Part shown: piece after piece, positions 1 to 59,853 of the stretch
Layout: every line of letters begins with the position of its first letter
Numbering within the stretch: position 1 is the first letter of the stretch
Assembly (NCBI GenBank): GCA_044892525.1
Contig: CM097888.1
Span: 47,058,001 to 47,122,000, forward strand
Length of the DNA: 64,000 nucleotides
Direction of reading: 5' to 3'
DNA from: Schmidtea polychroa
Lineage: Eukaryota
The notes under the pieces: model-generated
What the model was told of the DNA's origin: nothing
The model's input: the letters and a program-made list of their open reading frames with translations, nothing else
The model's database searches: none
Made by a program: the position numbers and the translations under genes

Positions 1-3000
1 GATGCAAGTGGATATGCAGCCGGAGCAATATTAGGACAACTCGACGAAGAAGGAAAAGAAAGAGTGATTGGATACTACAGTAGAACGTTTAAAAAGCACG
101 AGAAAAACTATTCCGTAACCGAGAGAGAAGCGTTAGCAATCATACAAGCAATTAAACACTTTCGATATTTACTATGGGGACACGAAATATGTATCACCAC
201 GGATCATCAACCATTAGTATGGCTTGGTCAACACAAAGAAGCTTCAAGTAGATTGATGCGATGGGCAATGCAGTTACAAGAATATTCACCGTTCATAAAA
301 TTCAAAGCGGGAAGAGCGAATGCCAATGCGGATTGTATGTCCAGATTTATCTTTCCAGATTTAGTAGATCACGAAATGCAACGAATATGTCTGATGGTAG
401 CAGAAGATTTAGATTTTTGCCAATTACGGAAAGACCAACAAGAGGATACAGAGTTGAAGCAAATCATTGAATATGTGAAAACAGGGAAAGCAGAGGTATA
501 TGAGAAAGATCAAAAATTGAAGGAGCATATGGATAAACATCGACATCGATATATTATCGAGAAAGATTGGTTATTGATAATGGATGGCGAGAAAAGACTG
601 ATGTGCATTCCCGAGAATAGACGTAAAGATCTACTAACACAATACCATGACGGAAGACTCGGAGGACATATGTCATCTAAAAAGACGTTGGCACGAATGA
701 AACAAAAATATTTTTGGCCTACATTGACCGAGGATGTAACGGAATGGGTGAAAAATTGCATAACTTGCGCAACCAGAAAAAACACGGGAACAAAATGGAA
801 GGCACCATTAAAGCCAATGCCAGTACCAGCAGAACCAATGACAATGATATCAATGGACGTAGTCGGTCCACTACCAGAATCAGATAGAGGAAATATATAT
901 ATATTGGTAATCACAGATTATTTGACAAAATTCCCCGAAGCATTCGCAATGGCAGATCAGAAAGCAAGAACAATCGCAAAAATATTAGTAGAGGAAATAT
1001 GTTGTCGATATGGAACGCCGAAACAAATACTGACGGATCAAGGAACGAATTTCATGAGCGAAATAATGAGCGAAGTCACCAACTACTTCAAGATCGCAAA
1101 ATTAAGAACATCACCGTACCATCCACAAACTAATGGTATGACAGAAAGATTCAATGGAACACTGATTCAAATGTTATCAAATTATGTCGATCGTCATCAA
1201 CGAGACTGGGATGAATATATAAAATTATGTCTAATGGCTTACAGAATGTCGATTCACGCGTCCACAAAGATGAGTCCGTTCAAGTTGATGTACGGCAGAG
1301 AATGCAATATGCCAATGGATTTAGAATATCAGCCACCGATATCACAATACATGGAAATAGACGATTATGTAACCAAGTTCAAGGAAAGAATGCAGGAAAT
1401 CTGGGAAACCGCAGGATTGAATATAAAATTTTATCAAGAAAGTTACAAAGAGTTACATGATAGAAAGAAAAACGTCAAACAGCATACGTTTCAAACAGGC
1501 GAATGGGTGATGATTGAAACACCAGAATTAATTCCAGGAACCACCAAAAAATTACAACGAAACGGTAAAGGGCCGTATGAGATTCTATTCGTCGGAGAAA
1601 CTAATGTAAGAGTACGATTAGTGAACAACCCTTTTACAAGACCAATATACGTAAATGTTGCACGATGTAAGCCAATTCCGAAAACCGCCACCAGTCAGCC
1701 GGAAGGACGTACACTAACGACAAGATCACAAACGTATAGAATAAACATGTTACAGCAAATAAACGAACCAACAGGTAATCGATTAGGGTTACAACCATCA
1801 GAAGCCGAGAAAATCATAAAGGAAGTAAAAGTTAAAATGCCCGGATGGGCAGAAGACAGATTAGATTTTGAGATATTGGGAGGTCTGCTAACAATGATCG
1901 AAAATTATGCAAACCGAGAAAGAACACACCCATTGCTCAGGGTAGTTAAAAGTCAATGGCCTATATTATTCACGATCACAGACCACTACGGAGACACACC
2001 CCTGCACAAGCTTTTAAAGGTGGGTAGTAACGAACAGATATTAGAAACAATTGAAGCATTTCGCGATTGTAACATTTCGACAGATCAAGAAAACAACCAA
2101 GGTTACACTCCACTAATGATAGCAGCCAATCGGGATAAAGCTAAAGATATTATCATCGCATTACTTGAAACTGGGTCAAGGATAACCACACAAGATCACA
2201 ACCAGAAAAATGCATTACATCATGCAATCGAAGGGAAAAGTACGGAAGCCTTCATAATCTTAGTAGATCTAATATCATACGAGGATAATAGAGAGATAGG
2301 AAACATGTATGACGGGCTATTAACTGCAATCAAAGAGAAATTAACAACAATTACTGGAATACTAATTGCATGGAGGAACCCGATAAAAAACGATTATATG
2401 GTAGATATAAACGAAACATTTACCAAAGGAGAAAATACCTTGATGAGAGAAGCGATGAGAGGACATCACCTATTCGAAATTCCAAATCAACTACTACAAC
2501 GAGGCATAAAATTCTCAAATCACAAAGACGAACAACTAATCAGAAAACGAATTACCAACTTCGAAAAAGCTATATCTCAATTTACCGATAAAGTACAAGT
2601 AAAATTTTGGGACACCGTGAGTGTTTTACATATGATGGAAACTATGAACAACATTCGAGAAAACTACCTAAGTATTATTCAAGTTCTAACGGCAGAGGAA
2701 CGCATTAACAGTTCGAACAAGAAAAAGATAAAAATGAAGAAAGTAAAAGCAAGAGAGTCTGAGGAACAAGTCGATCAACCAATAACCGATATAGCAACAA
2801 CAAGTAAACCAAAGATAATAAACTCCGACCAAGAGATAGTAGTACGTAAGGCTAAAGAAGTATTCTTTGAAGAAATGCAAGATCTATCCGATGAAGCGAT
2901 ACTAGCAAAAATAACCAAAACAGTACACACCTACGCAAGAGATCAGACCACAAATCTAGACATAGGAAAAATAAAAACATTTATACCACTAGCATTCACC

Positions 3001-4983
3001 TTACCAACAAAAGACTCAAGAACACCATTACAACAAGCCATTTTAGCAGCAAAAGAGAACAGAGCAATAACCATCATAAGAATCCTCAGAGACTTCGGAG
3101 AAGAATCTAATGCAAAAAACGAACAAGGGGAAACAGCAATGATGTATGCAGCCATAACAAATATACACCCGAAAACATTACATATACTACATCAATCAGG
3201 TTCGAGACTTGACGAAAGATCAAACGAAGGAAATTCTGCCATGGATTGGGCAACAATACAACCAAACTTGGAAATGATTAGATTCATTTGCAAAAATGCT
3301 ACAAGAACTGAGGTAGAAAATATCTGTAAAAACACGTCACAGTTCCAATGGAACACGATACGGATGAACTTAGAAGCCATGAAGTTGCTGCTAACATGGA
3401 GAATACCACAGAGCAATAAATATGCAATAAATATAAATGAGTTCTACGAAAACGGAGAAAATGCTATGGTTAAAAATACACTAACAAAAGGAGGAACTCC
3501 GAAAATCATAATGATCGTATTAAACAGAGAAGATCTCAAATTCACGCAGAATCTAAACGAACAAAAGCGAATCGGGAAACATCGTCGGATACAATTAAGA
3601 GAATTAGTGAAAGAATGGAATAGAAAGAGACATGTAGCAACAGGCAGAAAGGAGTTCGAACTCGAAGCAAAATTAGCAAGAAACAGAGTGCTAACGGCAT
3701 ACCGCAGATTGTTGAATGATATAAATGTCGAGGACGACATTTTAAACGATAGCGGGGGAGATAAAGACGATAAAGACGATAAAGACGACGATAATAATGA
3801 AAAAGGTCGAAACGGGAATAAAGAGAAAGAGAAATCAGAGGAGAATAATCAAGAAAATAACGACGCGAGTAGGAAAAAAGAGGAAAATAACCCGAGAAAC
3901 CGAATAAAGCAAGAAGAAAAGACGAATAGTGGAAAACAGAGGGTATGCCTACTTTTTACCAACAAAGAAATGGAGACAAATATGATGATAATGATACTCG
4001 TACTAACAATGGTGGAAATGATAACAGCCCAGGGAGGAATGAGAACGATAAAAGAAGTCAAAGAAACGGAAAATAAGGACAGCAAAGAGGAAGAACTAAA
4101 ACAAGAAAAGAAAAAACAAGTACAAGAGCAGCAATGGGATCTAAAAGAAGAATGGGATTTAAAAGAAAGGTGTATATTAGGAAGATGTATGTCTAGAGCT
4201 TATCAGAGACTAGTGTTAAAAAATGAAGATGCAGAACCAATAACGGAAGTAAGAATACAAGAAGCATACCGAAATCGAGAAGGAAAGAGAATAACGAAAG
4301 TCAAAGGGAAGGAGGTACACCTGGGAAAAGGAGGTGAGGTAGTGATAACGCAACTCCAGCCAAGAAAAGAACACAAAGTCTGCATCGCAAGATTAAGACC
4401 GGGTGAAGACTGTCTACAATATGTAATACAGCAACAACCTCCAAAAGAATACACAATATGCATCTGGAGAAAAGATACAGCGAGAGAATGTCGACGATAC
4501 CCTGGGAAAAGAGGGAAGAAAAGAAAAATCGATGATGAAAAAGATGAGCAAGGAAAACGCAAGAAAAACAGTGAGAAACATCAAGACAACTATGTATCCG
4601 AAGAGGAGATGGAGAAAATACAAAAAATGGCAAAGGAAGGTATGAACGAGGAAATAGCAAGAATACGAGGAATGATGAAAGGAAATGGCAAAGACGGTAA
4701 TCTAAAAAGCACAGAAGCAATATCAACAATAACGAGCAAGGAAAAAGCGGAAATTATAAGCATAAAACAGATGATGTGGATCAGCGGTATAATAATAACA
4801 GGGGCCTTTTTAATCATAACGGGGGGGACAATAAAAATAATCAAAGACAGACGACATCGCGGGGAATTAGAAATGACCAGAATAAGAAATTTTCAACATC
4901 GTGTAAAACGACCAAGTAATATCAAGCAGGAACAGTGGGTGGAGGCCTGGAATGCTCAGCGCCCTCCAAGCTCACGTATATAG
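1..4983 (+). CDS. pol: Pol polyprotein C-terminal part: RNase H - integrase - ankyrin modules - membrane-anchored tail (frame open from base 1)
   Basis: Frame 1 is open from 1 (DASGYAAGAILGQ...NYSVTEREALA...TDHQPL, RNase H). Integrase HHCC (YHDGRLGGH...CITC), D-D35-E (SMDVVGP, TDQGTNF, NGMTERFN) and GPY motif. Ankyrin motifs GDTPLH, GYTPLMIAA, KNALHHA, RTPLQQA, GETAMMYAA, GNSAMDWA. Hydrophobic segments at about 3982-4030 and 4771-4842. No stop until 4981. Confidence 0.95.
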   Translation, partial: DASGYAAGAILGQLDEEGKERVIGYYSRTFKKHEKNYSVTEREALAIIQAIKHFRYLLWGHEICITTDHQPLVWLGQHKEASSRLMRWAMQLQEYSPFIKFKAGRANANADCMSRFIFPDLVDHEMQRICLMVAEDLDFCQLRKDQQEDTELKQIIEYVKTGKAEVYEKDQKLKEHMDKHRHRYIIEKDWLLIMDGEKRLMCIPENRRKDLLTQYHDGRLGGHMSSKKTLARMKQKYFWPTLTEDVTEWVKNCITCATRKNTGTKWKAPLKPMPVPAEPMTMISMDVVGPLPESDRGNIYILVITDYLTKFPEAFAMADQKARTIAKILVEEICCRYGTPKQILTDQGTNFMSEIMSEVTNYFKIAKLRTSPYHPQTNGMTERFNGTLIQMLSNYVDRHQRDWDEYIKLCLMAYRMSIHASTKMSPFKLMYGRECNMPMDLEYQPPISQYMEIDDYVTKFKERMQEIWETAGLNIKFYQESYKELHDRKKNVKQHTFQTGEWVMIETPELIPGTTKKLQRNGKGPYEILFVGETNVRVRLVNNPFTRPIYVNVARCKPIPKTATSQPEGRTLTTRSQTYRINMLQQINEPTGNRLGLQPSEAEKIIKEVKVKMPGWAEDRLDFEILGGLLTMIENYANRERTHPLLRVVKSQWPILFTITDHYGDTPLHKLLKVGSNEQILETIEAFRDCNISTDQENNQGYTPLMIAANRDKAKDIIIALLETGSRITTQDHNQKNALHHAIEGKSTEAFIILVDLISYEDNREIGNMYDGLLTAIKEKLTTITGILIAWRNPIKNDYMVDINETFTKGENTLMREAMRGHHLFEIPNQLLQRGIKFSNHKDEQLIRKRITNFEKAISQFTDKVQVKFWDTVSVLHMMETMNNIRENYLSIIQVLTAEERINSSNKKKIKMKKVKARESEEQVDQPITDIATTSKPKIINSDQEIVVRKAKEVFFEEMQDLSDEAILAKITKTVHTYARDQTTNLDIGKIKTFIPLAFTLPTKDSRTPLQQAILAAKENRAITIIRILRDFGEESNAKNEQGETAMMYAAITNIHPKTLHILHQSGSRLDERSNEGNSAMDWATIQPNLEMIRFICKNATRTEVENICKNTSQFQWNTIRMNLEAMKLLLTWRIPQSNKYAININEFYENGENAMVKNTLTKGGTPKIIMIVLNREDLKFTQNLNEQKRIGKHRRIQLRELVKEWNRKRHVATGRKEFELEAKLARNRVLTAYRRLLNDINVEDDILNDSGGDKDDKDDKDDDNNEKGRNGNKEKEKSEENNQENNDASRKKEENNPRNRIKQEEKTNSGKQRVCLLFTNKEMETNMMIMILVLTMVEMITAQGGMRTIKEVKETENKDSKEEELKQEKKKQVQEQQWDLKEEWDLKERCILGRCMSRAYQRLVLKNEDAEPITEVRIQEAYRNREGKRITKVKGKEVHLGKGGEVVITQLQPRKEHKVCIARLRPGEDCLQYVIQQQPPKEYTICIWRKDTARECRRYPGKRGKKRKIDDEKDEQGKRKKNSEKHQDNYVSEEEMEKIQKMAKEGMNEEIARIRGMMKGNGKDGNLKSTEAISTITSKEKAEIISIKQMMWISGIIITGAFLIITGGTIKIIKDRRHRGELEMTRIRNFQHRVKRPSNIKQEQWVEAWNAQRPPSSRI

Positions 4984-5151
4984 AAAGGATTATGACTGTA
5001 TATAGATTGTAAAAAGTAAGTAGGAAATATTTATTTATATAACAATATTCTATATTTTTATATAAGCGCGGTATCAATAGTATATAATGATGGGGATAAT
5101 TAATATGAAAATAAAATTAGATAAGGATTGAAAAGTATATATAAATTAAGA

Positions 5152-5511
5152 ATGGAGCGAATAGGCGAGGAAGTAAACCACAGTACAACAACCGAGGAGA
5201 TGTGGAAACAACAATGTGCAATGTTAACTCAAGTGATTTCGAATTTACAGGAACAAGGACTCGCTGTACAAAGAAGCTTAGTCGAAAGTTTAAATAAAGG
5301 CTTCAATTATGTAAGAATAATCGAAGACCAACGAATGAAAATAGAACAAATGCAGCGAGAGATAGACCGAATATCACGATACAGCCAGGTGCAAGAAGAG
5401 GAGTTAATAAGAATCGCGGAAGAGATGGAGCGAGAGGAGATAGAAGACTGGTCAGAATGGTTAACCAGCAGGGAAGAGGGCGGACAAGAGGCCGACTCTT
5501 CCAGCCAATAA
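5152..5511 (+). CDS. Retroelement accessory ORF, about 119-aa coiled-coil protein of unknown function
   Basis: ATG at 5152 in an open frame with E/Q/R-rich heptad-like composition; same strand and base bias as neighbouring ORFs; AT-rich spacers on both sides. Confidence 0.7.
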   Translation: MERIGEEVNHSTTTEEMWKQQCAMLTQVISNLQEQGLAVQRSLVESLNKGFNYVRIIEDQRMKIEQMQREIDRISRYSQVQEEELIRIAEEMEREEIEDWSEWLTSREEGGQEADSSSQ

Positions 5512-5601
5512 ATATAACCTAAAATAGCAATGTAAATAAATGTAAATAAAAAACACGAAACTGTACCAGTAACGAATATATGTATATATATAATTATAGA
5601 A

Positions 5602-6990
5602 ATGGATAAGCGACAACGAGAAGAATTCAGAGAAATTGTTGAACAAATCAGAAAGTCCACCACAATTCGAATACACAACCATGTAACGTGTGGAATATGC
5701 AAGAGCTTATTAAGAGAACCTCACCAAACCAGATGTGGATGCAGAATGTGCAAAGAATGTATAGAGGAGATAATAAAGAAGGGACCACAATGGTGCCCAG
5801 TATGCAAAGAAACAATGATAACAAGTTTGGGAGATACAAACGAAGATAAAGCAGCTGTAAAAGATATGTTAAATGCAAACCTAGGATGTAAAAACACCCC
5901 ATGTAATTGGCGAGGAGTGATATGGGAAGTGAGGCAACATATGGAGCAATGTGAGTATAAAATCAGTCAATGCAAACGTTGCCAAGAAGAGATTAAAGTC
6001 AATGAAGAAGCAGAACATCAAAGTCGATGCGAAGAAAGACTGGAGAAATGCGAGTATTGCGGAGAAAACGACACCTGGAAGAAACTAATCAGTCAACATC
6101 ACAACATACAAGAGGAGAAAGTGTGCGCAGAATTCAGAGGAGAATGCCCCAACAAATGCGATAAACCCGGAGTAATAAAACTCGCTCAACATCTAAAAGA
6201 GTGTGAAAGAAAAAAGATAACGTGTGTGCTAGGAAAATGGGGATGTCAGAAACAATTACACCGAGGGGAATTACCCCAACATCTAGCAGAAAACGTATCA
6301 ACACACGCGGAAATATGGTCAACGGTATTACAGGAAAACGAAAGGAAAACCGAAAACTTAGAAAGAGAAATAGTCTCGCTAAAAGCGTTGGTAAAAGAAC
6401 TATTGGAAGAAAAGGAAGCATTTGAAGAGGCGAGAACAAGTACAAAGATACAGACAGATCTAGTAGAAACTAGCAACATTATGGTGAAAGAACTATATCA
6501 AAAAGTAAGCGAATTAAACCTCAACGAATTAATACCTACGGCTCCGTACATATGGAAAATAACGGGAGTAAAAGAGAAGATGCAGAGAGCGAGAAATGGA
6601 AAGGATACAACATTACTAAGTCCAGCATTCTACTCATGGAAAAACGGGTATAAAATGAAAATGAAAGCATACCCCAATGGGGATGGAAGTGCATACGGAA
6701 CGCATTTCTCAGTATTCTTCTTGATGTGCAAAGGGCCATACGACGAGTTAATAGAATGGCCATTCAAAGCAAAAATAGACCTCGCAATGATGAACTATCA
6801 AAGTATACACGAACAGAGTTTCCATACAGCGGGAAACCTCGTATGTTACCAAAGGCCCTTGGAAGAAGAAGGACCAGCAACCGGAGCACCAAATTTCATC
6901 CTACAGCGGAAAGTAGAAGACATGACGAGAAACGACACTATATACATAAAAATAGCGGTGAGGCGAGACGGGAAGAGTAGGACTGAGTAG
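5602..6990 (+). CDS. TRAF: Full-length intronless TRAF-family protein (RING, TRAF zinc fingers, coiled coil, TRAF-C/MATH), 462 aa
   Basis: RING CGIC...P..TRCGCRMCKEC...CPVC; repeated C-x-C/H TRAF fingers; coiled coil ENERKTENLEREIVSLKALV; MATH hallmarks YIWKI, SPAFYS..GYKM..KAYPNGDG...GTHFSVFF..KGPYDELIEWPF. Paralog (TRAF2/3/5-like) cannot be resolved by eye. Confidence 0.95.
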   Translation: MDKRQREEFREIVEQIRKSTTIRIHNHVTCGICKSLLREPHQTRCGCRMCKECIEEIIKKGPQWCPVCKETMITSLGDTNEDKAAVKDMLNANLGCKNTPCNWRGVIWEVRQHMEQCEYKISQCKRCQEEIKVNEEAEHQSRCEERLEKCEYCGENDTWKKLISQHHNIQEEKVCAEFRGECPNKCDKPGVIKLAQHLKECERKKITCVLGKWGCQKQLHRGELPQHLAENVSTHAEIWSTVLQENERKTENLEREIVSLKALVKELLEEKEAFEEARTSTKIQTDLVETSNIMVKELYQKVSELNLNELIPTAPYIWKITGVKEKMQRARNGKDTTLLSPAFYSWKNGYKMKMKAYPNGDGSAYGTHFSVFFLMCKGPYDELIEWPFKAKIDLAMMNYQSIHEQSFHTAGNLVCYQRPLEEEGPATGAPNFILQRKVEDMTRNDTIYIKIAVRRDGKSRTE

Positions 6991-7209
6991 AGAGACGAAT
7001 AATTTTGTATATACTAATTGTAAATATCGGCGTATATATCCAGTAAAATATTATATAGTAGTGTAGAAAATTCCCCCCAAATCTACCAAAGGTAAACTTA
7101 AGCGGAAAACTCCTAAAACAACTCCTATAACGAATTATAAAAATAAATAAATAATAAACCAGATATAAGCGTACAACGTTGAGTTAATGATATCGTTATT
7201 TAGACAAAG

Positions 7210-8031
7210 ATGACACAAAAAGGAACTGAAGCCCCAAACCACGAAACCAAAGTCAATAAAATCCATAAGGGAAAATGGGTCAAAGTAATGTTACAATTGA
7301 CGAACCAGACCCACAACCATCTCGAAGAGGCCAGGGAATACGAGAATAACAAATATCAGTGGTTAGTAAACAATTTAAGAGCCGAAGCAGAAGCATGCAA
7401 AAGAGCCTCTAAGTGGGCATCATTGGAAAACACTCGCCAAGAAGCGCACAGCCACTATTTAAAACAGTTAGTGCAGGAAGCACGGAAACGATTGACGGAC
7501 GAAAACACAAAACGAGAAGCAGAAAAACAAAAGGAAGGAAGGAAAATGAATCACCTATTGGCAGAAGCCCGAAACTGGAAGCGGCAGAACAAAGAGATGA
7601 AAAAAGAAATGAAAGAATTGCCTATGAGATTAGAATACGAAAGCGAACAAGGCAAATGGGAGGAAAATCTGGTCATAAGAGAAGAACTGAAACGGCTCAG
7701 AAAGATTGCGGCCCGAAGCCAAACATGGCAGACCAAAGCCATGGAATTTGAAAGACATCTAGCCATGAAAATCTCCATAAGGGAGCACGAGAATGCCGCA
7801 ATGGAAGAACTGATACTTCAACAGTCAGGACGACTCGTGGAACTGGTGAATAAGGTCGCAGAACTAGAACGAGATGTCAACGGATACCAAGGAGCTCTGG
7901 AGCAGAGAAATATGGTACTGGCGGGGAAAAACAAAAAGTTAGAAAACGAAAGGAAAATGTATAACGAAAATCTTAAAAATCTGGAGATAGAGATCAAGAA
8001 ATGGGAAAACGGCGAAAAGCGGAAGAGCTAG
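7210..8031 (+). CDS. Retroelement accessory ORF, 273-aa coiled-coil protein (possibly continues into 8001-8246 across a frameshift)
   Basis: Long open frame with E/K/R/L heptad composition; preceded by ttttag|acaaagATG. Confidence 0.75.
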   Translation: MTQKGTEAPNHETKVNKIHKGKWVKVMLQLTNQTHNHLEEAREYENNKYQWLVNNLRAEAEACKRASKWASLENTRQEAHSHYLKQLVQEARKRLTDENTKREAEKQKEGRKMNHLLAEARNWKRQNKEMKKEMKELPMRLEYESEQGKWEENLVIREELKRLRKIAARSQTWQTKAMEFERHLAMKISIREHENAAMEELILQQSGRLVELVNKVAELERDVNGYQGALEQRNMVLAGKNKKLENERKMYNENLKNLEIEIKKWENGEKRKS

Positions 8032-8246
8032 AAAAACAGATAGAGGTAAGAGACGATGAAACCAGGTATCTAACATACCTGTTGGACGAGGAACTTAACG
8101 TGTCAAGAGCACTAAGAGACGAAGTGCAAGAACTTAGAGCGCAGATTCCCCGGTACTACATCCCATTTGATCCCATCGCACTCCAATTACAAACGTCAGT
8201 AGAAAGCGATGAGGGATATGTAGGCCAGGAAGAGACCTTTGTATAA
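8001..8246 (+). CDS. Short overlapping ORF, likely the frameshifted C-terminus of the 7210 ORF
   Basis: Overlaps the previous ORF by 31 nt in another frame and continues the coiled-coil pattern (AEELEKQIEVRDDETRYL); no spacer or acceptor in front of it. Confidence 0.5.
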   Translation: MGKRRKAEELEKQIEVRDDETRYLTYLLDEELNVSRALRDEVQELRAQIPRYYIPFDPIALQLQTSVESDEGYVGQEETFV

Positions 8247-8421
8247 AGATAAAAGGAAAGATAAAAAATATAAAAATCGGGACCTGTATCCCAACCAAAA
8301 AAAATTAATGGTACAGTAAAAGTATGAAAGGGACTGTAACCCTGATTATAAAATAACATATAAATGTATAAGTATAAGCCGCACTGTAGCGCAATTATTA
8401 ATTATGTATATATTATAGAAA

Positions 8422-9123
8422 ATGAACACTGAAAACGGACAACCCAGCATAACATCTATAATTGAGTTAGAAGAGGGAGAAATTGAAGTTGATGAAGTGG
8501 AGAGGAAGAAAACTATCAAGGAAGAATTACAAGAAGAGAGACAGGAAAACGAAAGATTAGTTGAAAGATGGAGAGATAATCGAAAAATGATTAAAGTATT
8601 GAAAAGAGAATATATCTTGTTAGAAGGAGTAAAGAAAGAAGTAGAGGAGGAAAACGAATGGCTTCACGAGCAAAGAAAGCGAGGGAGAAATTGGGAAAAG
8701 ATCGCGGAAGAATTATGGCAGGAGAGGGCCAGTCGAAAGGCCGACGAAGTGATTAGTGACTATTGGAAAACCGAGGCACGGAAACACCAGGAAAGCCTGA
8801 AAGAGTTACAACTCCAACTACACCAAAAACAGAAAGAATGTGAGATAATGAGACGAATGAACAACAAATACCAGGAAATAGACAACGAAGAGGACGGGGA
8901 AAGGGAAAATGATTTTCTACAGATAATGAACCATAGAAACCTCGAAAGAGCAACACAAGAAATAAAAGCACTAAAAGGAAAAATAATAACCCTAAGGCAA
9001 CAGTTAGACGAAAGAGACAAACAATTAAAAGTACTACCCGAATTGAGAAAACGAGTAATAAAAGCAGAAACGAGAGTGATGAGAACATCCGAGAAAACCC
9101 GTAAAAAGAAAACCCGGCAATAA
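8422..9123 (+). CDS. Retroelement accessory ORF, 233-aa coiled-coil protein with basic C-terminus
   Basis: Open frame, highly charged heptad composition, ends KTRKKKTRQ; preceded by ttatag|aaaATG. Confidence 0.75.
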   Translation: MNTENGQPSITSIIELEEGEIEVDEVERKKTIKEELQEERQENERLVERWRDNRKMIKVLKREYILLEGVKKEVEEENEWLHEQRKRGRNWEKIAEELWQERASRKADEVISDYWKTEARKHQESLKELQLQLHQKQKECEIMRRMNNKYQEIDNEEDGERENDFLQIMNHRNLERATQEIKALKGKIITLRQQLDERDKQLKVLPELRKRVIKAETRVMRTSEKTRKKKTRQ

Positions 9124-9178
9124 TTAAAGATGAATGATCAATGTAAATAATTGTAAATAAAAATTTTCGTATAGTAGT

Positions 9179-9805
9179 ATGTGGTTCGGAGCAACCTTGG
9201 TGACAATAATGATGATAGCGATAAACGGGATACCCATGTGGCAACCAATCCCAACACTCTGGGAGAATCCCGAGAAACAGCAAAACTCGTTAACCAAACT
9301 AAAAAGCGCAAGAAAGCTCTGCAACAACATCCCGAAACAATGCTGGAACAAAGCCGTCTGGCAAAAACTTCAAATGCAACTCCACCTACAAACCCAAAAA
9401 ATCGAACAGCTCGAAACTCTCTTACAAGAACAAACCACCCAACAATCCTTGAAGGAAATCATCATGAAGAAGGAAGTAAAAGAAAGCCAAGTCTTACTCT
9501 ATACTACCATCAGTGAAACCCTTATCATCTGCGCACTAGTCATCTGGAAAGCGTATGATATTCATCGAACATGGAGAAGAAACCAGTCACTATCCGAAAA
9601 ACACGAAAGAAAGAACCCACGATCGAAAAATAAATATAAACGAGCAGTACATTTTCAACAACCAAACCCACCCGACCAAATGCAACAAAATCTATCTCCT
9701 GACCAAATGCCTGTTACAATCCAGCTCCCCACGATAACAACTTCAACCAGCCATCCGACCCAGAATTCAACTAACCAAGACATTCCGAACCTTGAGATCA
9801 TGTGA
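9179..9805 (+). CDS. Retroelement accessory ORF, 208-aa predicted membrane protein (N-terminal signal/TM, coiled coil, second TM, P/Q/T-rich tail)
   Basis: Hydrophobic MWFGATLVTIMMIAING; heptad LQMQLHLQTQKIEQLETLLQE; hydrophobic VLLYTTISETLIICALVIW followed by basic residues. Confidence 0.7.
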   Translation: MWFGATLVTIMMIAINGIPMWQPIPTLWENPEKQQNSLTKLKSARKLCNNIPKQCWNKAVWQKLQMQLHLQTQKIEQLETLLQEQTTQQSLKEIIMKKEVKESQVLLYTTISETLIICALVIWKAYDIHRTWRRNQSLSEKHERKNPRSKNKYKRAVHFQQPNPPDQMQQNLSPDQMPVTIQLPTITTSTSHPTQNSTNQDIPNLEIM

Positions 9806-10530
9806 CATCGACCATTCATAAACTTTGTGTGTATAAATCCGGTCACCTAAAGTGGCCACTGCTTGCTTATATTTGTCCTTTTATCTGTTTAATTAAAGTA
9901 TTATTTAGTTATTTTAATTTTATGTTTGTGTGAATGTTGACCGTGAAATTAGTTGTTATGCCGAAAAAAGGTATGAGTTAAACGTATGATATTATATGAA
10001 TTGCGGGGCGCAATTTTAACGGGCCCCGGAGTGATTTGTTGGGCTAAAATGCGGAGTGGAGAAAACTGGAGCGAATAGAAAATAAACCTCGAAAGATAAA
10101 TGAAATAAGATAAAAATATCAAGTACCATAAAAATCTCACTAGTAAATAGGAAGGAACAATAAAATAACAATAAAAGAATAAGAATAAGTAAACAAACTA
10201 AATAAAATCCAATAAACCCCTTAAGATTTAGAAATAAAACGGGTTAAGGTACACAGCGGATAAAATAGAAATAGAATAAGTAAAAAAGTAAAAACAAATA
10301 AACGAGGAATTTAAGAAAATAAATAAAAATAAAACCATCTTAAGTCTAATTAAAACAAAAAATGATATTGCAATAAAATAACAATAAGTCCACAGGAAAA
10401 ATAGGAGAAAAATAAGAAAAATAAATAAAATAATAATAAGAGATAAGTCAGGTCATTAAAAATTTAAAATACGATGATAAAAACATAAAAATAATAATAA
10501 ATAGTAAAAATACAAGCAGGTAGCGTCCTG

Positions 10531-10580
10531 ATTGGACGAAAAATACTATATATGTAACGTGAAAAATTAGACGACAACCA
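10531..10580 (+). promoter_or_regulatory. LTR core promoter: CCAAT box (ATTGG), TATA box, predicted initiator
   Basis: ATTGG 10531-10535, TATATAT 10547-10553, Inr-like CCACTTT about 33 nt downstream; same layout in the solo LTR. Confidence 0.65.
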
Positions 10581-12930
10581 CTTTTAATTTTTCACGATTA
10601 CAGGTAAAATTTTAGAAAAGAACTTAGAACCACTTTTAATTTTTCACGATTACAGAGCATAGACTTCAGATATTTCACCGAATTCAGGACTAGAATCGCA
10701 AACGCCAATTCCAGAGATTTTCAGAATTTAACTTTAATTTAGTCGAGACCATTTTAAATTCGATTTCGTTCCAGTTTTTGAAACTACCGGTAGGCCGATT
10801 GATTTATATGTATTAGTAATTTATTAATGATGAAAAACAAAACTCATTTCGTAAAATAAATTTATTGAAATACAAATGGCCTTTTCTTCATGGTGCCGGC
10901 GACTGTACCATCTGAGAACTCCCAGTATGATGTGGATGAGTTGGAAATGTACCACGGTAGAGAACACAACAGTGGGAAGGTTGACCTTCATAAGAAATCC
11001 CGAAGATGCTGAAAATGAGAATGTGATATTTGCAGAGAAGGATATTTATCATACGAGAAATCCACCAAGGGTATGATGAGGCTGCGGTTGTGTGGAATGA
11101 ATAGCATCATACTTGGAGTCCAAATGATAGGGTCGCCGGGTGAGCTTTATTGATTCATTTATTTTCATTGATTTATTTATTTTTTGATTCATTTACTGCT
11201 ATTCGAGTCATTCATTCCTTTTATTATTCATAAATTGTATATTAAATGTTGATTTTGTGAAAGACGAGTCAAACGGTCCCTCACGACGATGCAAGAACGG
11301 CGGCAGAGATGATTGCCTTCTTGGGTGGGTCATGAGGGGTGAGGAGACTCCGCAGGTGGAATACTGTTGGAAGTGGAATTTCTCACATCGAGCGCGATCT
11401 GATAGAGGATCTTTCGTTTTCTTTTATGAAGTCACGCTGAAGTTTCAGAATAAATAATGCAAATTTCCAAAGTCGGAGACAATTTTTCGGATTGAGATCA
11501 GTAGTTCGTTGTTGTTAGGAAAATTTGCTTTTCCATCGAATATTGATAGATGTCTGAGTAGGGATGGGCGATGAATTGTTAGAGTTTTCACTGGAAGATC
11601 TGCTAAGCACTTAAAAATTGAACCCCGAGAGGTACATTGCAGGGACATTAGCGAGTAAACCCATTCATTGACTAATTTAGACTTTAGCTTGACATTGAAT
11701 ATCTGATAAAGTTTGGTTTGACGTTGACAGCGGCTCGTCTAAAATGGGAAAGTAAACAAATTTTTTGATAAGGAAATAAATCACTTGCCGTGAGTCCGAG
11801 TGAAGATATCAATAGCGATAGGAGAATCATTAGTTGCCCATGGCCAGATAAATTTCCGACGGGGAAAATCGGCTGATAATTTGATAAAGTCATCGAACGA
11901 GTTGATTGAGAAGGCGGCAGTCGATCGAGTGTATTGAGTGGTCTTATCGTGAGTCGACCTAATATCGAAAATCCAGAATATAGAGTAATTTTTATCTACT
12001 GAATCCGCAAGTCACCCACACAATCGAATTTCTTGAGTTTTGGACACACCAACTGAGTACCCGTCTCAACTAGAGCATCTCTCTACAACTCTACCTCTAT
12101 TAATCGCTCGCCCACATGTACACATGCATCACACTCAGATTAGGTCACAGTGCACATGTGGATATCATCATTACCTAATCATAGGGAGAGAGTCGTACAC
12201 TTGAAACTGCTGGTAGACCACTGGATTGCGTCAGAGAACATGGCGATGCGACGAGAAATTTTTTTTTTGTCAGTGTGCAAGTCGCTAGTTAAATGCACCA
12301 ACATGCATCGTGACGAACCCGTCGATAGTTGATGGCATAGATAGACAATCAAATGAACACATAACTGCGCCCAATTTAAGCGTCACTATGACGATGTTTA
12401 TGGCGTTAAATTGAAATAACTAAGTTATGAGCCATGATAAAAATTTAAGCGAGAGTATTATGATTTTCTTACAAACCCGAGGGGCCTACATACAAGACGG
12501 GGTGTCCCGGTAATTGCCGACTTTCCGTTCATCATACAGCACGCGTAGAATTTGATGACGTAGCAGCAAAATGAGTAAAATATAATGGTTAAAATGTAAC
12601 AACGATAATTAAGATAATAGCATTCATAGTAACGAATTAACAGTCATGCAGTAGTTAAAAATAGCCAAACCCATAAAGTAAACCTAAAAGCTAGCATAAT
12701 GAAGTGTCTTCATGAATCCCGTTTTCTTCTCATAAAGTAGTAATGATTTCATGGGTTAGTTTAGATGTTTGAGGTTGCATGAAGGTGAATGTTTGTCGAC
12801 GGGGTAGATTGGTAGGCCACTCTTTGATAACTTGGTCGGGGAGATTCTTAAACTTCATTTTTCCGAAAACATGAATAATGCCCCAGTGAATTTTTTTTAA
12901 TCTAACAATAAAAATTTCTTAACAATTCAG

Positions 12931-13695
12931 ATGAATACCTCAACCAGTTCCGGGAAAACCCTCAGACCTTGCTTTTCCTGTGCTGATAAAAATGCCGATA
13001 TCGCACAGCTCCACTTGTACATAGGGGAATTGAAGAAGAGAATTGACCTCTATGAGGGAACGTGGTTCTCCCCACCACAAATGAAGGAGGAGAAGAGCAA
13101 GATTCTGCGTCTGGAGCACTGCCGTGACAGTCTCCTGGAAGAAAGCAGGTGCCAGAGGTTAACCATAAAGGCCCAATCAGAGGCACTGCACAAGGTGTAT
13201 TCCGAATCAGAACTAGCGAAGCGAGTTCGCGAGTACCCGATACAAGATGGGACTAACGTGTTCCCAATGCACCACAAATTAGCTGAAACCTCATCAATAT
13301 CCAGTTGTAAAGGGCATGGCCCACAAATGCCGCCAATTCCCGCCCCAGTCCTTTCGGGCGATCGACCTATGGCTGGCGGTTCATCGGACCCTATCTTGGC
13401 TCCAGTACTCGTGCCACACCTCCTTCAGTCCCCAGCAGAAGCTACACTTCCCCATCGAAAGCGTAAGCGGCTGACGCGTTCTGAAAAAAATCAGAAGCGT
13501 AGAAATGCCATGGCCGCGCTCGAAGCATCGTTGTCCGCAGCCCAATCGACTATCAAGGAAATTACAGTTACCCATTCCATTCCTACAAAGGAAGTATTCC
13601 GGGTAGTTCCGGCCGACAGTATCAAATTCCTCGAGGATCGCCGGTTGCCCGTTGATATCGACGAGATGCTCGCAGAAGGAGAAGCATTCTCGTAG
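12931..13695 (+). CDS. LTR-encoded 254-aa protein (CxxC, coiled coil, Pro-rich linker, basic NLS-like patch, acidic C-terminus)
   Basis: Intact in both LTR copies; 95 of the first 103 aa identical while most differences are synonymous; ttcag directly before the ATG and a CTAAC branch-like motif at 12902. Confidence 0.85.
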   Translation: MNTSTSSGKTLRPCFSCADKNADIAQLHLYIGELKKRIDLYEGTWFSPPQMKEEKSKILRLEHCRDSLLEESRCQRLTIKAQSEALHKVYSESELAKRVREYPIQDGTNVFPMHHKLAETSSISSCKGHGPQMPPIPAPVLSGDRPMAGGSSDPILAPVLVPHLLQSPAEATLPHRKRKRLTRSEKNQKRRNAMAALEASLSAAQSTIKEITVTHSIPTKEVFRVVPADSIKFLEDRRLPVDIDEMLAEGEAFS

Positions 13696-14575
13696 CAAAT
13701 TCTCTCTCGGGTCTCGATTCCCTGCTATTACGAACGAACTTGAAGAAGCGACGTTATCTCGTGACTAATCTTTAATGTTTTGCATTTACTTAAACAATGC
13801 TGAATGTAATTTGATGTTCCGTTCTAATATAACTGTTCGATTTTCTTTGATTGTGTTAATTGTATGTATGATTTGCTACGGTTGAATTGCATGAGAGAAG
13901 GATCACGAAAATATAGTAGAAACTCAAATGTCGTACCTTTGGACCAGGGTCGGACCGAATGATGCGTAAAGAATGGGTAAGACCTTCTAAGGCACCGTAG
14001 AACCCGAACCGAGAAAGGGTTAGGAGTAGTCCTAAGGCAGGGGCTCACCTGCTAACTCTTTCCAACCCGTGTGAGCAGCACCAACGTGGAAACACCACCA
14101 CGGGCTCATACGTGGGAATATGCGAATGATCATTTGGAGTGTGTGAGGGAATGGTCTGAGCAGAATGATGATACCTGATGTGTATGATAATCATACCTAT
14201 ATATTTTCTTTTCCCCCCACATACGCCAACAAATAATTTGTTGCATAATATATATAAAACAATTTTTTATTATTTAATTTTTATATATTCTTAGTAATAT
14301 CTCTATGAAAATTTTTTCTTAATAATAATTTTAATTAATAAATTTTCTATTTCAGTTTTATTAATCATTAACTTTTCCTAGACGTTTTCCTGGCACTTTG
14401 GTAAAAATATTAGTTAAAATTATTCGATGAAAATACTGATTTTCAATATTAATGAAATTTGAAAGATCAAAATTTTAAAAAATAACTGAAATAAATAGAA
14501 AAACATCTACAAAAATTCAAACTTTATTATCGGTTTAATGTTTTGTTTAACACAATCAATATAATATCTCGATCA

Positions 14576-25507: not shown

Positions 25508-28500
25508 ATTTATCTATTTTATAAAATATATTAATTATATAAATCAATTAAATTTTTTTGTATTGCAAAATAATTCGATTTTTGCATAAAAATATAAATA
25601 ATTTCAAATAACTTTTTTTTAAATTTCAAATATTTAAAATGGCATTTCATGACTTATATTGCTAGATTTGTCCGACAGTTTATGACTAATCAATGGTAAT
25701 CTTATATTTTCAGTTATATTATCAGTTCCTACATACGCTATTTGGTTAGCTAGGCAAAATGCTCATAATGTGAGGTGCTTTTGATAGGATACGTCGAAAT
25801 CCCATTTTAAGTCTTGTATCATAAAGAGCATTATGTAGATATTCTCTTCTTCATAGGAATTATTTGACAAGTCACATATCATGAATTTCGTCAATTATAG
25901 AATTTCAATTTTATTGAAAAATAAATTAAGTCAGATTTTGGAACAAGTTTCGGATTTTGAAAATTTACATTAAAGAAACTAAAGTTACATTACATTTCGT
26001 TTTGCAATTTTTCCTTTTTATTTCAATTCGAGCATTAATATTATTAAGTTAGTTAAAATTTCATTAACCCTTTCAATGCCGGTGACGTTCTATACTTTTT
26101 TATGAAAATTTAAATACAACATAATTTAAACAAAAATCTATTTTTTTATATTTCATTTATTTTCATTATGACAAAGGATTTTAGGTCTTTTTTCATACGG
26201 GTTGAAAAGATCAAGTTATTAAACAAGAAAATAAAAGTAGAGAAGTGTAAATATTATAATTATATTCTATAAATATTATAAATTTGTCTACTTTTAATAA
26301 AATTCTAGTTACAACAGAAAATCTTTAAAAAACCAATCAGTTGTTACGATTCCAAAGATGAATGGAATTATAAATAATATTCAAAGTACCTGCATAATTC
26401 CTAAATTAACTACTGCCAAGTTATTAATGAGTCTCAGTCCAGAAATGGTAATTCTTCCAGCCAGCTGCTGAAGGGCTGAAAAAAATGTAAATAATGATCA
26501 TCCAAATAATGATGTAGGGTGGTGTAAAAAATATTATACATTTCCTTGACAGTTGAGATTATAGTTTCAATGAACATATACTCACATAGTCAGATTATTT
26601 AGGGAGTAGACGCGTAAAATAAAATTTTTTAAGCTCGAATTTTCAAATAACTTATTTCATGGCCTCTGAATCTGGGATGTGCAACAAGAGTAAAAATATT
26701 TCTCTATATATAAAAAAGCTAGGGGTCCCCTCCATCCGAATTTTACTTTTTAATTTTTTTTAAATTTTTTTTTGTCAAATAAATAAAATAATTTTTTATT
26801 AGTTTGGCTGTTTTGACGCAAGTCGTGTTAGATATTTAACGGGTTTACGTCTAATCCATACCTGAACATCATTAACCCCACGTTCTAACGGGGTTGGTGA
26901 AGCGAAGCGAACGGGGCAGAGCCCCTAGTATATATAAAAATGATAGATAAAGAAAATTAATATTTAATTATATTTAAAGTTTGAAGAAATTTTAGTTGAA
27001 GGTTGTTACGATTCATTATGATTACACCCATCATCATCACATGAAAAGATAGGATAGAAATGAAGCTGAAAACGATCACATTGACTGACTAGATGGATTT
27101 AATGGAATTCAAAATGAAAGAGCATAATTCAACAGATCTATAAATACCGTATTTATTTTCTTATAACACACAGGCTTTAATATTATCGTTCAATACTTTT
27201 TTAATTTTTAAAAACACTCAACTTTTAAACCCAACATGGTGGGTAAGAAGAATGCAACTGGGCGCATTTCTACAAAAGGATTCCACACAGTAGAAGTAAA
27301 ACATATGAGAACTGCATATACGATACAATTTAAAAAGAATGTGTTGGATTTCTATGATGTAAATGGTGCGTCACAGACAGTTACCAAATTTTGGCCTGAT
27401 CTAAAGTCATCATCGCCAGCTCGTGAAGCCAAAAGACAGTTAATATATCAATGGAGAAAAAATAAAGACCGAATAACAAAACTTGGGAATATGAATAGGG
27501 TCAAGAAATTGAAAAAGATCCGACCACTAGGAACTTCCTCGAGTCTTTCATCTGAAGTCGAAGACGAACTTATTTTCTGGGTCCGAACCCTGCGCCAAAA
27601 TGGTGTCCCCGTAACCGACAGTATACTTCGTACTAAAGCTCGCCTATCGTGCAGACAAACCGATGTTAATAATTTCTTAGCAAGCACTGGGTGGCTAAAA
27701 ACCTTTAAGAAAAAATATGGCTTGTCACTCAGAGCCAAATCTCATCAAGGACAAACATCCATAGTCCTTCCAAATCCGGTAGCCACTCAGTTTGCATTAG
27801 ATGTCCGACAAAAAATGATTGAATTAAATGTAGATTGTGTTTGGAATGCCGACCAAACGGCTGTTAATTATGAAACAATCCCCGGAAAAACCTTAGATAA
27901 AATAGGTTCCAAGACAATATTCATACGAACAGCTGGGAAAGAAAAAGAGAGGATATCAGTATTATTGCTGGGATCTTCTAATGGACAGAAAAAACCACCT
28001 TTTGTAATATTTAACCCTTTCGCACCGACTTTCCGCTAATGACACTATGCTAAATTTATATATTGGAACTTGTTAATATTGACCTAAATATATTCTCATT
28101 TTTGTAATCGTGGCGATTCTGAATATCCTAGAAAGTCCTGGGATAATAAGTCCCAATAGGCTTTTATGGACCATTCAAAATATCCCAGTAGGATCATGAT
28201 GAAAGTTTCTGGGACGTATTGTCTTAATAGGGGCGAAAGGGTTAAGGGTAAACAATCAGTTGTGGAGGCATCATCGTTGCAGAATAGAATTAATCAACAT
28301 GGATTTCGTAGTTGTGTCTGGAAAAAAATACAGGAGATCAATAAAACCAGCACGACTCAAATATATTGCAACCAAAATGGCTGGTTTACAAGCGATATGA
28401 TGGTTATCTGGCTTTATCATAATTTTTCCGAAAATGTGGAGAAGCCAAAGATTTTATTATTGGATGACTTTACAGCACACTGGACAAGCGATGTTTTAGC

Positions 28501-31500
28501 CGCTGCAAATATCCTTAATATTACATTGATGAAGATTCCATCTGGTTTTACATCAGTTTGCCAGCCTGCAGATGTTAGCTGGAATAAACCGTTTAAATCG
28601 CACTTAAGAACAATGTGGTCTGAAAAATTAAGAACGGATATGGAAGCAAATGAAGGCATATTCAAAGCAAAAGTTCCCCAAAGAGATGTTTTGATTGATT
28701 GGGTTGACTCTGCCTGGGAGCAGCTGTCTCATGCTACGATGATTTCTGGATTTTCAAAACCGGGCTATATTGACAGACATGAAGGTATTGATGAGCCCCT
28801 GGGTCAGGGCATTCAAGATTCCAATTTAGTTGGAAATAGCAGCCTTTATCTGCCTGATCAATATTTTGAATAAAAATTCTAGCTTTCCGTAATTTGAATG
28901 TACGGTTTTAATTTTCATATATCAAACAGAAAATTATTAAAGGTGTGTGTTATAAGAAAATAAATACGGTATATTCTTCGTATAAATATGGCCTTGGTCA
29001 TCAGCGATTTTTGTATTGGTGAAAATAGTCAATAGCAGATGAGAAATCTTATAAATATACATTTCTGAGGATGTTCTTGAAAGATAATAATTGTTTCTTT
29101 TAATAATTATTTCAACGCATAATCTCGTACTTTAACTGTTCAATATTCAGTAATTTCCCCTCTTCAAAGAGTAAAAATATGGCTTTGGCAGGAAAATTGA
29201 CTCAACAATACATTTCTTGCATATAATAACAATGAGTTTTTAACAATGCAGAAATTGAAAAGAAGTTTATTGTAAAATAGTGCATTGACAAGGGATTACA
29301 AACAGCCACCTTTAATACAATTCTTATCAAAACAATGAACAACACAAGAAATTGATCTTTATATTGCATATCTTTACTCGGACACAGATATAGTATTTTG
29401 TCACTGGAAAACAATGCCATATTTAACATAGACTGTAAAAGGAAAGAAAGAAGAGAAAACTGGATAAAATCTTTTAAGGATCCTGGAAATTGTGTTTAAC
29501 CGTTATGAAGCGAAATAATTAAGTTCTTTGGAATGTGCCTTCTATTGGACAGTCATCGCTTTCAGAAAAAAATGTAATTTTTACGTAGCACGGCTAAGGA
29601 GGATAAATGCAAACTGATAGTCATCTTTAAATTGAAAGGCAGCAAAAATTATAGTAAAGACAAAAACTAAAGGATGAATAACTAAAAACCTTTATGCTTG
29701 GTGGCTAAGTTGGTATGGAAACAAAGAAAAGGTTCAATATTTTACTAAAGATCTGTACAACTATGATTTAGCCTCTTCTCGTTTGATTGACGAAGAGTGT
29801 AGTGATACCAGACTGACTAATGAAGCTTCTTCAGTCATTGGATCTAACGGTGAACAACAGTGGCCATCAAAAAGAATATAATTAAGAAGAAACCCTAGAG
29901 AGAATCTTTAAGGTTATCGGTTATAAAGAAAATGTTGTGGATCTAAATAATATGCTATCTGCCATGATTGAGAATCTAGAAACACTAAAATGTTATTCTG
30001 ATAATAAATTTAAGGTATTCAACGAATAAAACGTTAAAATAAATATATATAAAAAAACTTTTTAAAATACCACGATTTTCTTGTGGACTAAGTATTATTA
30101 AAATATTGTGTTGTCATCGAAAGCAAGCATGTATACAAAATTTCAGCGAAATTGGATTATGCGAAGTGCTTCAAAATTCGATAGATAGATTTGACTCGAA
30201 CATACATAAATACAAGAAAGCAAGTTAAGAAAAACGTTTAAATAAAAAAAGATTATATTGTTTTGTTTTTGTATATTATCTATATTATTTATTATTATCT
30301 ACGATGCCTAAATAACTCGCTCATTATATATTGGAAAATTTGGTGCATGGTTTTAAAATTGATGAATTAATTTTAAGTAAAAAAATATTTATCTGGAGTA
30401 AATGTTCATTCAAATTCTAGTATAATAACAACAATGATTGACTTACAATCCGATTTAGATACAATGTTTCCTTGATATAGCAAAAGTCCGTACAAAAGAC
30501 AAACCAAACCGCACATTTCAGTGCCTTCTATAGATTGAAGTAATTGAGTATGATCAATTAAAGATTTGAAAGAATCCCCATCAGGACATCGTGGATAATT
30601 TGCATCAAGTGCAGATAATTTCAATGTGCCAGATTGAGATTTAACTGGTAAAATGTAAGATTTACAGCTAAATAGGGAGATATTTTAATAATTTTAGATA
30701 AAATTTAAATTTTTTCATAATGCAAAAAAATGTTAAAAAGAAAGCAAAAACAGATAAAAAGTTGATTCTATAATACTATTGTGTTTTATGAGATGTTTGG
30801 TCAATCCTGAGTTTAAATATGGATCGCGTCTGTGTGCGCATTGAGTATTGCTTGTAATTTTTCTGTTGGGTTGCACAATTTTGAATTTTAGTTTTTTATT
30901 ACCGTATATACTCGCGTATAGGCCGAGTAATTTTGGATTAATTTTTTTCCCAAATTGATGGGCCGGCTTTACGCGAACCTACTTTTAATTAAAATAATTA
31001 TGGTTCAATAATTATATGTATTAATTATATTATTTATAATTATTTATATTTAATGTTAATTAATATTTTTAAATTAATATACAGAATAAATCAAAACCAA
31101 ATTTGGGGAGGGGGGCGTCAGCTTATATGCGAGTATATACGGTAATTATTAAGTGGATGATTTTTGGATTTGTAGAAGCTTTTTTGAAAAAGGAGCTTCG
31201 CGCGTATTTTGGAGAATAGAGATTTTTTTTGAAGTTTCGTTTTTATTCGTTTTTTATTATGAAATGGTTTATCTTAAAGAATGGATATGAATTCATAAGT
31301 GTTGGCAATGATGGTAAATCTAAGGATTTCTTAGTTCATTTTAAATCTATCGCATCCGGCAATGAAATCTAATAACTGATCGAGAAGTTCTTTTCAATAA
31401 TCCCAAAACTGGCAGAAGATCATTGACTCAAATTATGTTGGAGACATTTAATGTACAAATGAAAGTTTTGATAAGTATGAAAATTCAAATGTTTACGGGA

Positions 31501-59799: not shown

Positions 59800-59853
59800 A
59801 GAATGATACTCTACAGATTTTTGTCGCTCTTTATATATTATTTTCTGTCCAAT
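59800..59853 (-). promoter_or_regulatory. Solo-LTR core promoter (CCAAT box, TATATAAAG, Inr-like TCATTC)
   Basis: ATTGG 59853-59849, TATA 59837-59829, TCATTC about 31 nt downstream on the minus strand. Confidence 0.7.

Follow-up and report, generated by a model that had tools for sequence, protein, structure and literature searches.

Burro elements fill planarian genomes. As described in the accessible part of the source, Burro and GYPSM1 are gypsy-like elements of ~30 kb with multi-kb long terminal repeats (LTRs), a TRAF cargo and a huge first open reading frame (ORF1) comprising gag, env, protease, reverse transcriptase (RT), RNase H, integrase and ankyrin repeats (PMC6431247); that part contains nothing on accessory-ORF expression, a leader exon or Pumilio sites. 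For one Burro cargo gene, a protective effect on stem cells in regeneration has been reported, as relayed in the accessible part of a citing paper (PMC13465017). Burro RNA reportedly rises upon RNAi of the smedwi-2 type (PMC8532177). Here we analyse 64,000 nt of Schmidtea polychroa DNA (assembly GCA_044892525.1, contig CM097888.1, positions 47,058,001 to 47,122,000; hereafter the window), of which positions 1-14231 make up the 3' half of an LTR element 30.5 kb long (G000:C4:47041719-47072231). Its LTRs of ~4.2 kb are 99.9% identical, the 5' one lying upstream of the window, and AATA flanks the element on each side. A single ORF1 of 4626 codons, comparable with the nearly 5000 amino acids of Burro ORF1, encodes gag, zinc knuckles (zf-CCHC), protease, RT, RNase H, integrase and ankyrin repeats, with a fusion-type env (Monjiviricetes fusion) placed between gag and pol. 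Five ORFs follow 3' of ORF1, one of them a TRAF at 5602; a RING ORF precedes gag, completing a cargo of apoptosis/ubiquitin type, and a 254-aa ORF lies within the LTR. The locus thus represents the 3' cassette of accessory genes in a giant gypsy retroelement of the Burro type. Unlike Burro1 proper, the window family has neither a MATH domain in ORF1 nor a BIR/IAP ORF; both are present in a sister family (L079-L098). The window family is abundant, a search with the TRAF yielding 92 scored matches of 1885 candidates at 92-100% identity.

Complex retroviruses and foamy viruses pair one 5' donor with many acceptors, and Penelope-like elements keep introns through retrotransposition. The present cassette resembles the former in its predicted single LTR promoter, short leader exon and alternative 3' splice sites before accessory genes. 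It also resembles flatworm spliced-leader (SL) operons, as these are presented in the accessible parts of two papers, in having co-oriented genes 55-219 nt apart, a candidate acceptor near each ATG and a predicted common short leader (PMC12582326, PMC8629364). Reading the sequence, we lean towards a model in which each cassette gene is cis-spliced from an LTR leader to an AG just before its ATG, while TGTAWATA octamers in the spacers serve as predicted Pumilio elements. The fuller statement, that Burro carries its own cis-acting spliced leader with a decoy-copy switch and twin Pumilio sites on nearly every cistron, gag-pol included, is more tentative and in our judgement falls somewhat short of an even chance.

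The candidate leader lies in the LTR, whose 3' copy spans 10037..14231 (TGTTGG...CCAACA); all features given here are on the forward strand unless said otherwise. A promoter-like block (10527..10554) holds a reverse CCAAT box, invariant in 15/15 diverged LTRs, and a TATA at 10547. About 30 nt after the TATA comes a candidate leader exon of 25-28 nt (copy 1, 10576..10603), which ends ACAG/GTAA in all 15 diverged LTRs; the working copy would be that of the 5' LTR. It is followed by a candidate 52-nt intron (10604..10655), the last 28 nt of which (10628-10655) repeat the leader exactly, ending in AG with no GT donor after it. The repeated unit starts where a start site is expected relative to the TATA. 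A second conserved donor-like site (11131..11145, GT at 11140, then a T-rich tract) is present in 15/15 LTRs, although in four rows the GT is lost and a GTAA stands 4 nt onward. As expected for common-leader splicing, then, the sequence places a conserved donor-like site shortly past the predicted LTR start site. As a separate observation on the LTR, a G-rich block at 11280-11350 is conserved in all 15 diverged LTRs amid variable DNA.

The leader stretch recurs 45-53 nt downstream, again ending in AG, and the pair is found in 39 of 42 distinct LTRs; two have a single copy and no intron (L017, L022), and in one the leader was not located (L025). Within an LTR the two copies agree at a mean of 23.9 of 24 nt (40 rows, 38 distinct LTRs), compared with 14.0 of 24 nt between 12 distinct leaders, and private changes are mirrored in both copies in L002, L009, L016 and L175. 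The candidate introns measure 45-53 nt, close to the host: 19 of 23 host introns inferred in myosin genes fall at 44-58 nt, and the accessible part of one source reports a length peak at 45-85 nt (PMC13594981). No comparable duplication occurs in 370,938 nt of host loci; beyond the Burro LTRs, the duplication scan gave two matches, C1 reverse and D1 forward. In a third LTR family a different leader is duplicated, with an intron of 45 nt, and the BIR-carrying family has a TATA, a leader of ~50 nt and a GT(A/G)AG donor in 4/4 copies. The minus strand at 56164-60265 of the window carries a further, diverged LTR that belongs to the window family, its LTR ORF being 73% identical; it too has a duplicated leader of its own and is probably a solo LTR.

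The simplest cause of this co-variation would be a spliced genomic RNA that re-templates one copy from the other during reverse transcription. We propose that on genomic RNA the donor is spent on the nearby AG ending copy 2, removing a host-sized mini-intron; the spliced 5' end would then have no donor left, and the primer site and packaging region would not be spliced away. Minus-strand strong-stop DNA would copy the leader and land on copy 2 of the 3' LTR, so that each cycle rewrites copy 2 from copy 1 and restores the intron from the unspliced 3' end. If the donor requires a decoy on genomic RNA, this would imply that it has other splice partners. Paired with a far acceptor instead, this donor, or the second one at 11140, would give a subgenomic mRNA in which the respective ORF comes first. 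In complex retroviruses, by contrast, genomic RNA is unspliced; here splicing is predicted at a mini-intron in R, and the duplicated leader would preserve the intron. Penelope-like elements offer another likeness, an intron near the 5' end that is regained from a terminal repeat, but they belong to another RT class and have neither true LTR strand transfer nor a self-matching leader pair.

The partners would be the AGs before the cassette ORFs, which start at 5152, 5602, 7210, 8422 and 9179 behind spacers that we call S1 to S5. An AG lies 1, 2, 6 (and 0), 3 and 4/1 nt before these ATGs, respectively, and a TTCAG adjoins the ATG at 12931, as a first-pass annotation of the sequence had noticed. 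With one reference copy taken from each of the two cassette-bearing families, an AG stands no more than 6 nt before every one of the 11 ATGs. A single such AG says little, because the baseline is high: an AG falls within 0-6 nt at 340 of 1037 spacer positions, before 56 of 124 ATGs inside ORF1 and before 15 of 50 starts of host G-protein-coupled receptor (GPCR) genes. Eleven of eleven in two families does carry weight.

We scored acceptors with a model of 23 host introns inferred at 22 myosin loci, where 10 of 33 candidates had been set aside as singly supported. Among 443 AGs in the window family, those before the ATGs rank 1, 3, 4, 5 and 13, and 1, 2, 3, 4, 17 and 48 of 689 in the BIR-carrying one; in S1, an AG ending at 5066 scores better than the pre-ATG AG at 5149-50. 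Conservation was assessed in 41 copies of 86-99% identity, 31-41 of them usable per spacer: AG columns vary in 0 of 10 cases, compared with 170 of 576 other spacer columns. The S3 acceptor alternates between TAG and CAG among copies, and the TRAF copies keep TAG in 100 of 100 cases among the matches listed, where no match has the non-T base at -3 that a genomic copy of a spliced TRAF mRNA would carry; searching with or without TAG listed identical sets of 100 places, 50 on each strand. The AG-to-ATG distances share no common frame, so the leader would be non-coding or its frame unused; it is free of ATGs and would suit as a 5' end for each cassette mRNA. Altogether, acceptor-like sites precede the accessory ORFs, and the pre-ATG AGs likely behave like 3' splice sites.

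The second component of the spacers is the octamer TGTAWATA. The five spacers (710 nt in total) contain nine, at 4997, 5531, 5541, 5581, 7006, 7019, 8405, 9142 and 9152, exactly where the first-pass annotation had put them. Its impression of enrichment is borne out: 5000 dinucleotide shuffles of the five spacers gave 0.62 +/- 0.77 octamers with a maximum of 4, and the best count for any G/C-containing octamer with one W was 6 in 1000 shuffles. Two classes can be told apart, seven octamers standing shortly past a stop and two (5581, 8405) shortly before an acceptor. In the 11 spacers of one reference copy per family, a relaxed motif, TGTANA(T/A)A, starts in 10 between 13 and 19 nt past the stop (SD 1.6 nt); its distance to the next ATG in the same spacers ranges over 37-204 nt (SD 50). 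A second copy follows 9-13 nt downstream in nine of the ten motif-bearing spacers. The motif is absent at +10 to +35 from all 50 host GPCR stops (the longest open frame defining both ends of each gene), and it follows none of five host TRAF-like ORFs. Where no cassette gene lies behind an element stop, it is missing in six of seven cases, the seventh having TGTATAAA at +24. Among copies, motif columns vary in 4 of 64 cases, against the 170 of 576 other spacer columns (Fisher p 2e-5); two of the four are position 5 and two come from a single copy in which both S1 motifs are lost. Folding of four stop regions gave no common structure.

This placement bears on two readings that treat the octamers as DNA or splicing signals. 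Each spacer could be an internal promoter driving its own transcript, with TGTAAATA as a forkhead-type site or TATA-like box; TGTATATA does resemble a TATA, and TGTAAATA fits a forkhead core. However, the motif keeps its distance to the upstream stop rather than to the start that follows, it is confined to one strand, its TATA-like copies at 5581 and 8405 are too near the ATG, and the acceptors would be unnecessary. We regard internal promoters as highly improbable. Alternatively, the octamers could be 5' splice donors (T/GTAAAT, T/GTATAT), making the spacers small introns or U1-binding sites. A T precedes the GT in 9 of 23 host donors, and in most spacers the motif-to-AG distance, 48-197 nt, is compatible with the size of host introns. 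In S5, though, the result would be an intron of 25-36 nt, whereas none of the 23 host introns is shorter than 44 nt; the octamer is matched by 0 of 23 host donor regions; and with the acceptor kept in every listed TRAF copy, such an intron would never have been lost from genomic RNA. Donor function is therefore very unlikely as well.

The first-pass annotation had favoured a polycistron resolved by 3'-end formation together with either SL trans-splicing or alternative cis-splicing from an LTR leader, possibly under PUF control. Of this, acceptor-like AGs, a Pumilio-like octamer and cis-splicing from the LTR find support, the last now with a candidate leader and donor; 3'-end formation and SL trans-splicing fare less well. 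In an operon, each spacer would be cleaved and polyadenylated, the host SL trans-spliced at the AG, and UGUA would be a 3'-end signal. Spacers of 55-219 nt fit such a scheme, the accessible parts of two sources giving an intercistronic median of 99 nt in S. mansoni (PMC12582326) and a mode of ~100 nt in Macrostomum (PMC8629364). Flatworm trans- and cis-splicing often use common acceptors, some octamers overlap AATAAA, and the octamer's absence after most stops without a following cassette gene suits an operon too. Yet AATAAA is not enriched in the spacers (7 seen, 6.2 expected), and of 20 aligned rows 13 lack the one overlapping the first S2 octamer but keep the octamer itself, making 3'-end formation in every spacer doubtful. 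In S5, a signal, a cleavage site and an acceptor would have to share just 55 nt. The acceptors of flatworm operons undergo little cis-splicing and would lack an upstream cis donor, whereas two conserved ones stand in the LTR here; the leader is element-encoded, unlike the SL. We hold an operon unlikely: SL trans-splicing is unneeded, and nothing pointed to it.

A mixture of the adenoviral kind, in which the LTR leader is cis-spliced but each mRNA ends in the next spacer with the twin UGUA as a non-canonical 3'-end signal, would accommodate the spacing of the twin octamers, the overlap of the second S2 and S5 octamers with AATAAA, and the general absence of the motif where no cassette gene follows. 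A nuclear signal, on the other hand, should need no distance of at least 13 nt from the stop; a free position 5 beside fixed positions 6-8 is a trait of PUF sites; and S1 and S3 have no AATAAA within 100 nt after their motifs. We consider this mixture rather unlikely. The first-pass annotation had also named UGUA as the CFIm poly(A) enhancer. CFIm is the weaker reading of the octamer compared with Pumilio, because planarian (S. mediterranea) poly(A) sites are reported, in the accessible part of the source, to lack UGUA, with CFIm59/68 not found (PMC5068929), and because the octamer outlasts the overlapping AATAAA.

Its other suggestion, a PUF element, agrees well with the sequence. The spacer motif has the form UGUAHAUA with a free position 5, which is A, T, C or rarely G across copies. 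PUF-8, according to the accessible part of the source, binds UGUAAAUA, tolerates A5, C5 and U5 and excludes G5, and the octamer resembles the Pumilio response element UGUAHAUA described there (PMC6351103). A host Pumilio is encoded at G000:C4:75.19-75.21 Mb, and its repeats, read from the exons, carry the triplets SRQ, NYQ, CRQ, NHQ, CRQ, NYQ, SNE and NYQ. We take these eight to be the PUM1-type recognition code, and they match the motif. Unlike known Pumilio elements, the octamers stand at a fixed 13-19 nt past mobile-element stops and are usually paired, an arrangement not seen in the 50 host genes. The 13-nt lower bound matches the stretch covered by a terminating ribosome; a site at least 13 nt past the stop fits this cover and points to action on translated mRNA. 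The host Pumilio thus probably binds the octamers. Sitting at the first place left free by the terminating ribosome, it would most likely damp the cistron and block scanning into the next. That outcome is in itself doubtful, and the Pumilio step is the weakest of the four in our scheme, which otherwise comprises the single LTR promoter with its 25-28-nt leader spliced before each ATG, the decoy splice on genomic RNA and the rewriting of copy 2.

Several observations weigh against the leader-and-Pumilio reading. For the octamers, S4 has no stop-proximal copy, being the sole exception among the 11 spacers; the relaxed motif behind that count was defined post hoc, the strict octamer occurring in 8 of 11, and the 11 spacers do not form an independent sample, several of them being orthologous between the families. 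Neither S1 motif survives in copy L182, and G5 variants occur (L028; spacer 4 of the BIR-carrying family) even though PUF-8 excludes them. The second S2 AATAAA is kept in 19 of 20 rows, and some internal polyadenylation may take place. Concerning splice sites, two acceptors are weak AAG sites (S1, and the last in the BIR-carrying family); moreover, T is commoner in the spacers than in coding DNA, so that any spacer AG scores higher under the acceptor model, itself drawn from 23 inferred introns. In the LTR, the single leader without intron in L017 and L022 is explained by deletion between repeats equally well as by splicing, the BIR-family LTRs B1, B2, B3 and B5 have no duplicated leader, meaning that the duplication is not general, and 16 ATGs between leader copy 2 and the second donor weigh on the role proposed for that donor. 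Among the rows listed, no leader-to-ORF junction appears on presumed RNA contigs or as a genomic copy. Assembled contigs presumed to be RNA that match 1-14400 (4 runs) had no leader or SL at the acceptors among 15 of 49 joints and 24 of 480 loose ends, and those matching 5110-5680 (2 runs, one without matches) had none among 6 of 17 loose ends; neither result is decisive.

While the Burro family itself is known, its conserved spacer code is real, and the LTR CCAAT and TATA, the 25-28-nt leader, the conserved donor and the exact leader repeat are new here. Nothing on the feature came up in literature listings on Burro, the IAP work, planarian trans-splicing and operons, LTR introns with strong-stop DNA, and Pumilio in retrotransposons; Grohme 2018 and Lee 2026 may describe Burro transcripts. 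The model would explain how a 30-kb element expresses five or six genes behind a 14-kb ORF, and it specifies exact junctions that could be sought in existing long-read data. If it holds, a retroelement would have a way to retain an intron despite a spliced genomic RNA, a host RNA regulator would be linked directly to element cargo, and nearly every cistron, gag-pol included, would stand under a host stem-cell regulator.

The cassette is laid out as follows. The 3' part of ORF1 (RNase H, integrase, ankyrin repeats) occupies 1..4983, gag to RT lying upstream of the window. S1 (4984..5151) has TGTATATA at +13 (4997) and TGTAAAAA at +24, and leads to a 119-aa ORF (5152..5511), which over 58 aa shares 36% identity with the cassette ORF that comes first in the BIR-carrying family. 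S2 (5512..5601), with TGTAAATA at +19 and +29, TGTATATA at 5581 and an acceptor-like TATAG ending at 5599, precedes the TRAF-like ORF of 462 aa (5602..6990; RING, zinc fingers, MATH). After S3 (6991..7209; octamers at +15 and +28, acceptor-like TTTAG ending at 7203, TTCAG in diverged copies) comes a coiled-coil-like ORF (7210..8246), which has 345 codons in 34 of 41 other copies, their stop matching 8244-8246, and ends prematurely at 8031 in the window copy. In S4 (8247..8421), TGTATATA at 8405 adjoins an acceptor-like TATAG ending at 8418, ahead of a 233-aa coiled-coil-like ORF (8422..9123) with no Pfam match above the cut-off. S5 (9124..9178, 55 nt), with TGTAAATA at +18 and +28 and tandem AGs ending at 9174 and 9177, leads to the last cassette gene, a 208-aa ORF with a hydrophobic N-terminus (9179..9805). 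The 254-aa ORF inside the LTR spans 12931..13695, its acceptor-like TTCAG directly before the ATG. An Rfam search of 4900-14300 returned 0 matches at E 1.

The 5' part of the element offers some observations of its own. Between the 5' LTR and gag lies a 159-aa RING ORF (L032 8390-8875). An AG precedes its ATG, and its stop is followed at once by a donor-like GT; its homologue in the BIR-carrying family, 26% identical, has GTGAGT 6 nt past the stop. Translation of gag may begin at a codon other than AUG or in an exon further upstream: at L031 ~594-1102 (window -9406 to -8898), a strong acceptor-like AG ranking 10 of 2410 opens an ATG-free frame of ~170 codons into gag, and ~100 open codons precede the first gag ATG in the BIR-carrying family. 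The AG before the first gag ATG was rejected as an acceptor, ranking only 408 of 2410. A primer-binding site stands 7 nt from the 5' LTR end (L032 ~7914-7940) and resembles, we presume, a tRNA-Pro site. At the other end, the polypurine tract before the 3' LTR is atypical, and both the motif at the last cassette stop (9800-9812) and the block preceding the 3' LTR (9990-10036) are near-identical in the two families.

The BIR-carrying family came from a search with BIR (150 scored of 309 candidates), after which five places were fetched. It has six cassette ORFs and a TRAF 32% identical to that of the window family; its reference copy has an early stop in the TRAF, and the stop common to its sister copies was used to define the spacer. 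A decayed subfamily of the window family (63-76% protein identity) retains octamer motifs and AGs. No third family with a cassette was found among the fetched fusion/Bcl-2 matches (5 places) and zf-TRAF matches (6 places). The former proved to be either Polinton-like DNA or cassette-free gypsy elements that carry env and are shorter; the latter comprised four host loci, one further copy of the BIR-carrying family and one decayed subfamily of the window family. The gypsy elements of 14-18 kb (L099-L102, L111-L118) share the env-in-polyprotein layout and have no cassette; they are possible ancestors of the giant form. Bcl-2-like ORFs in Polinton-like DNA (L103-L110) occur in numerous copies in G000.

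Some copies of the window family hint at recombination. Copies L002-L011, L026 and L028 have cassettes of 97-99% identity and differ in leader and LTR type (compared with window 9900-14231), which suggests LTR exchange between subfamilies. In the diverged copies L176, L179, L180, L183, L184 and L185, matching ends at ~8750-8810 and resumes at 9835; judging by this alignment, that subfamily lacks the final one and a half ORFs of the cassette or has other DNA in their place. In run X1, one contig connects the end of the 5152 ORF (window 5501) with an S5-like spacer (9141); S2 and S5 are alike, and spacers may be recombination points or derive from duplication. Finally, outside the element, two ORFs at window 27236-28873 resemble, by eye, a fragmented DDE transposase of pogo/Tigger type.

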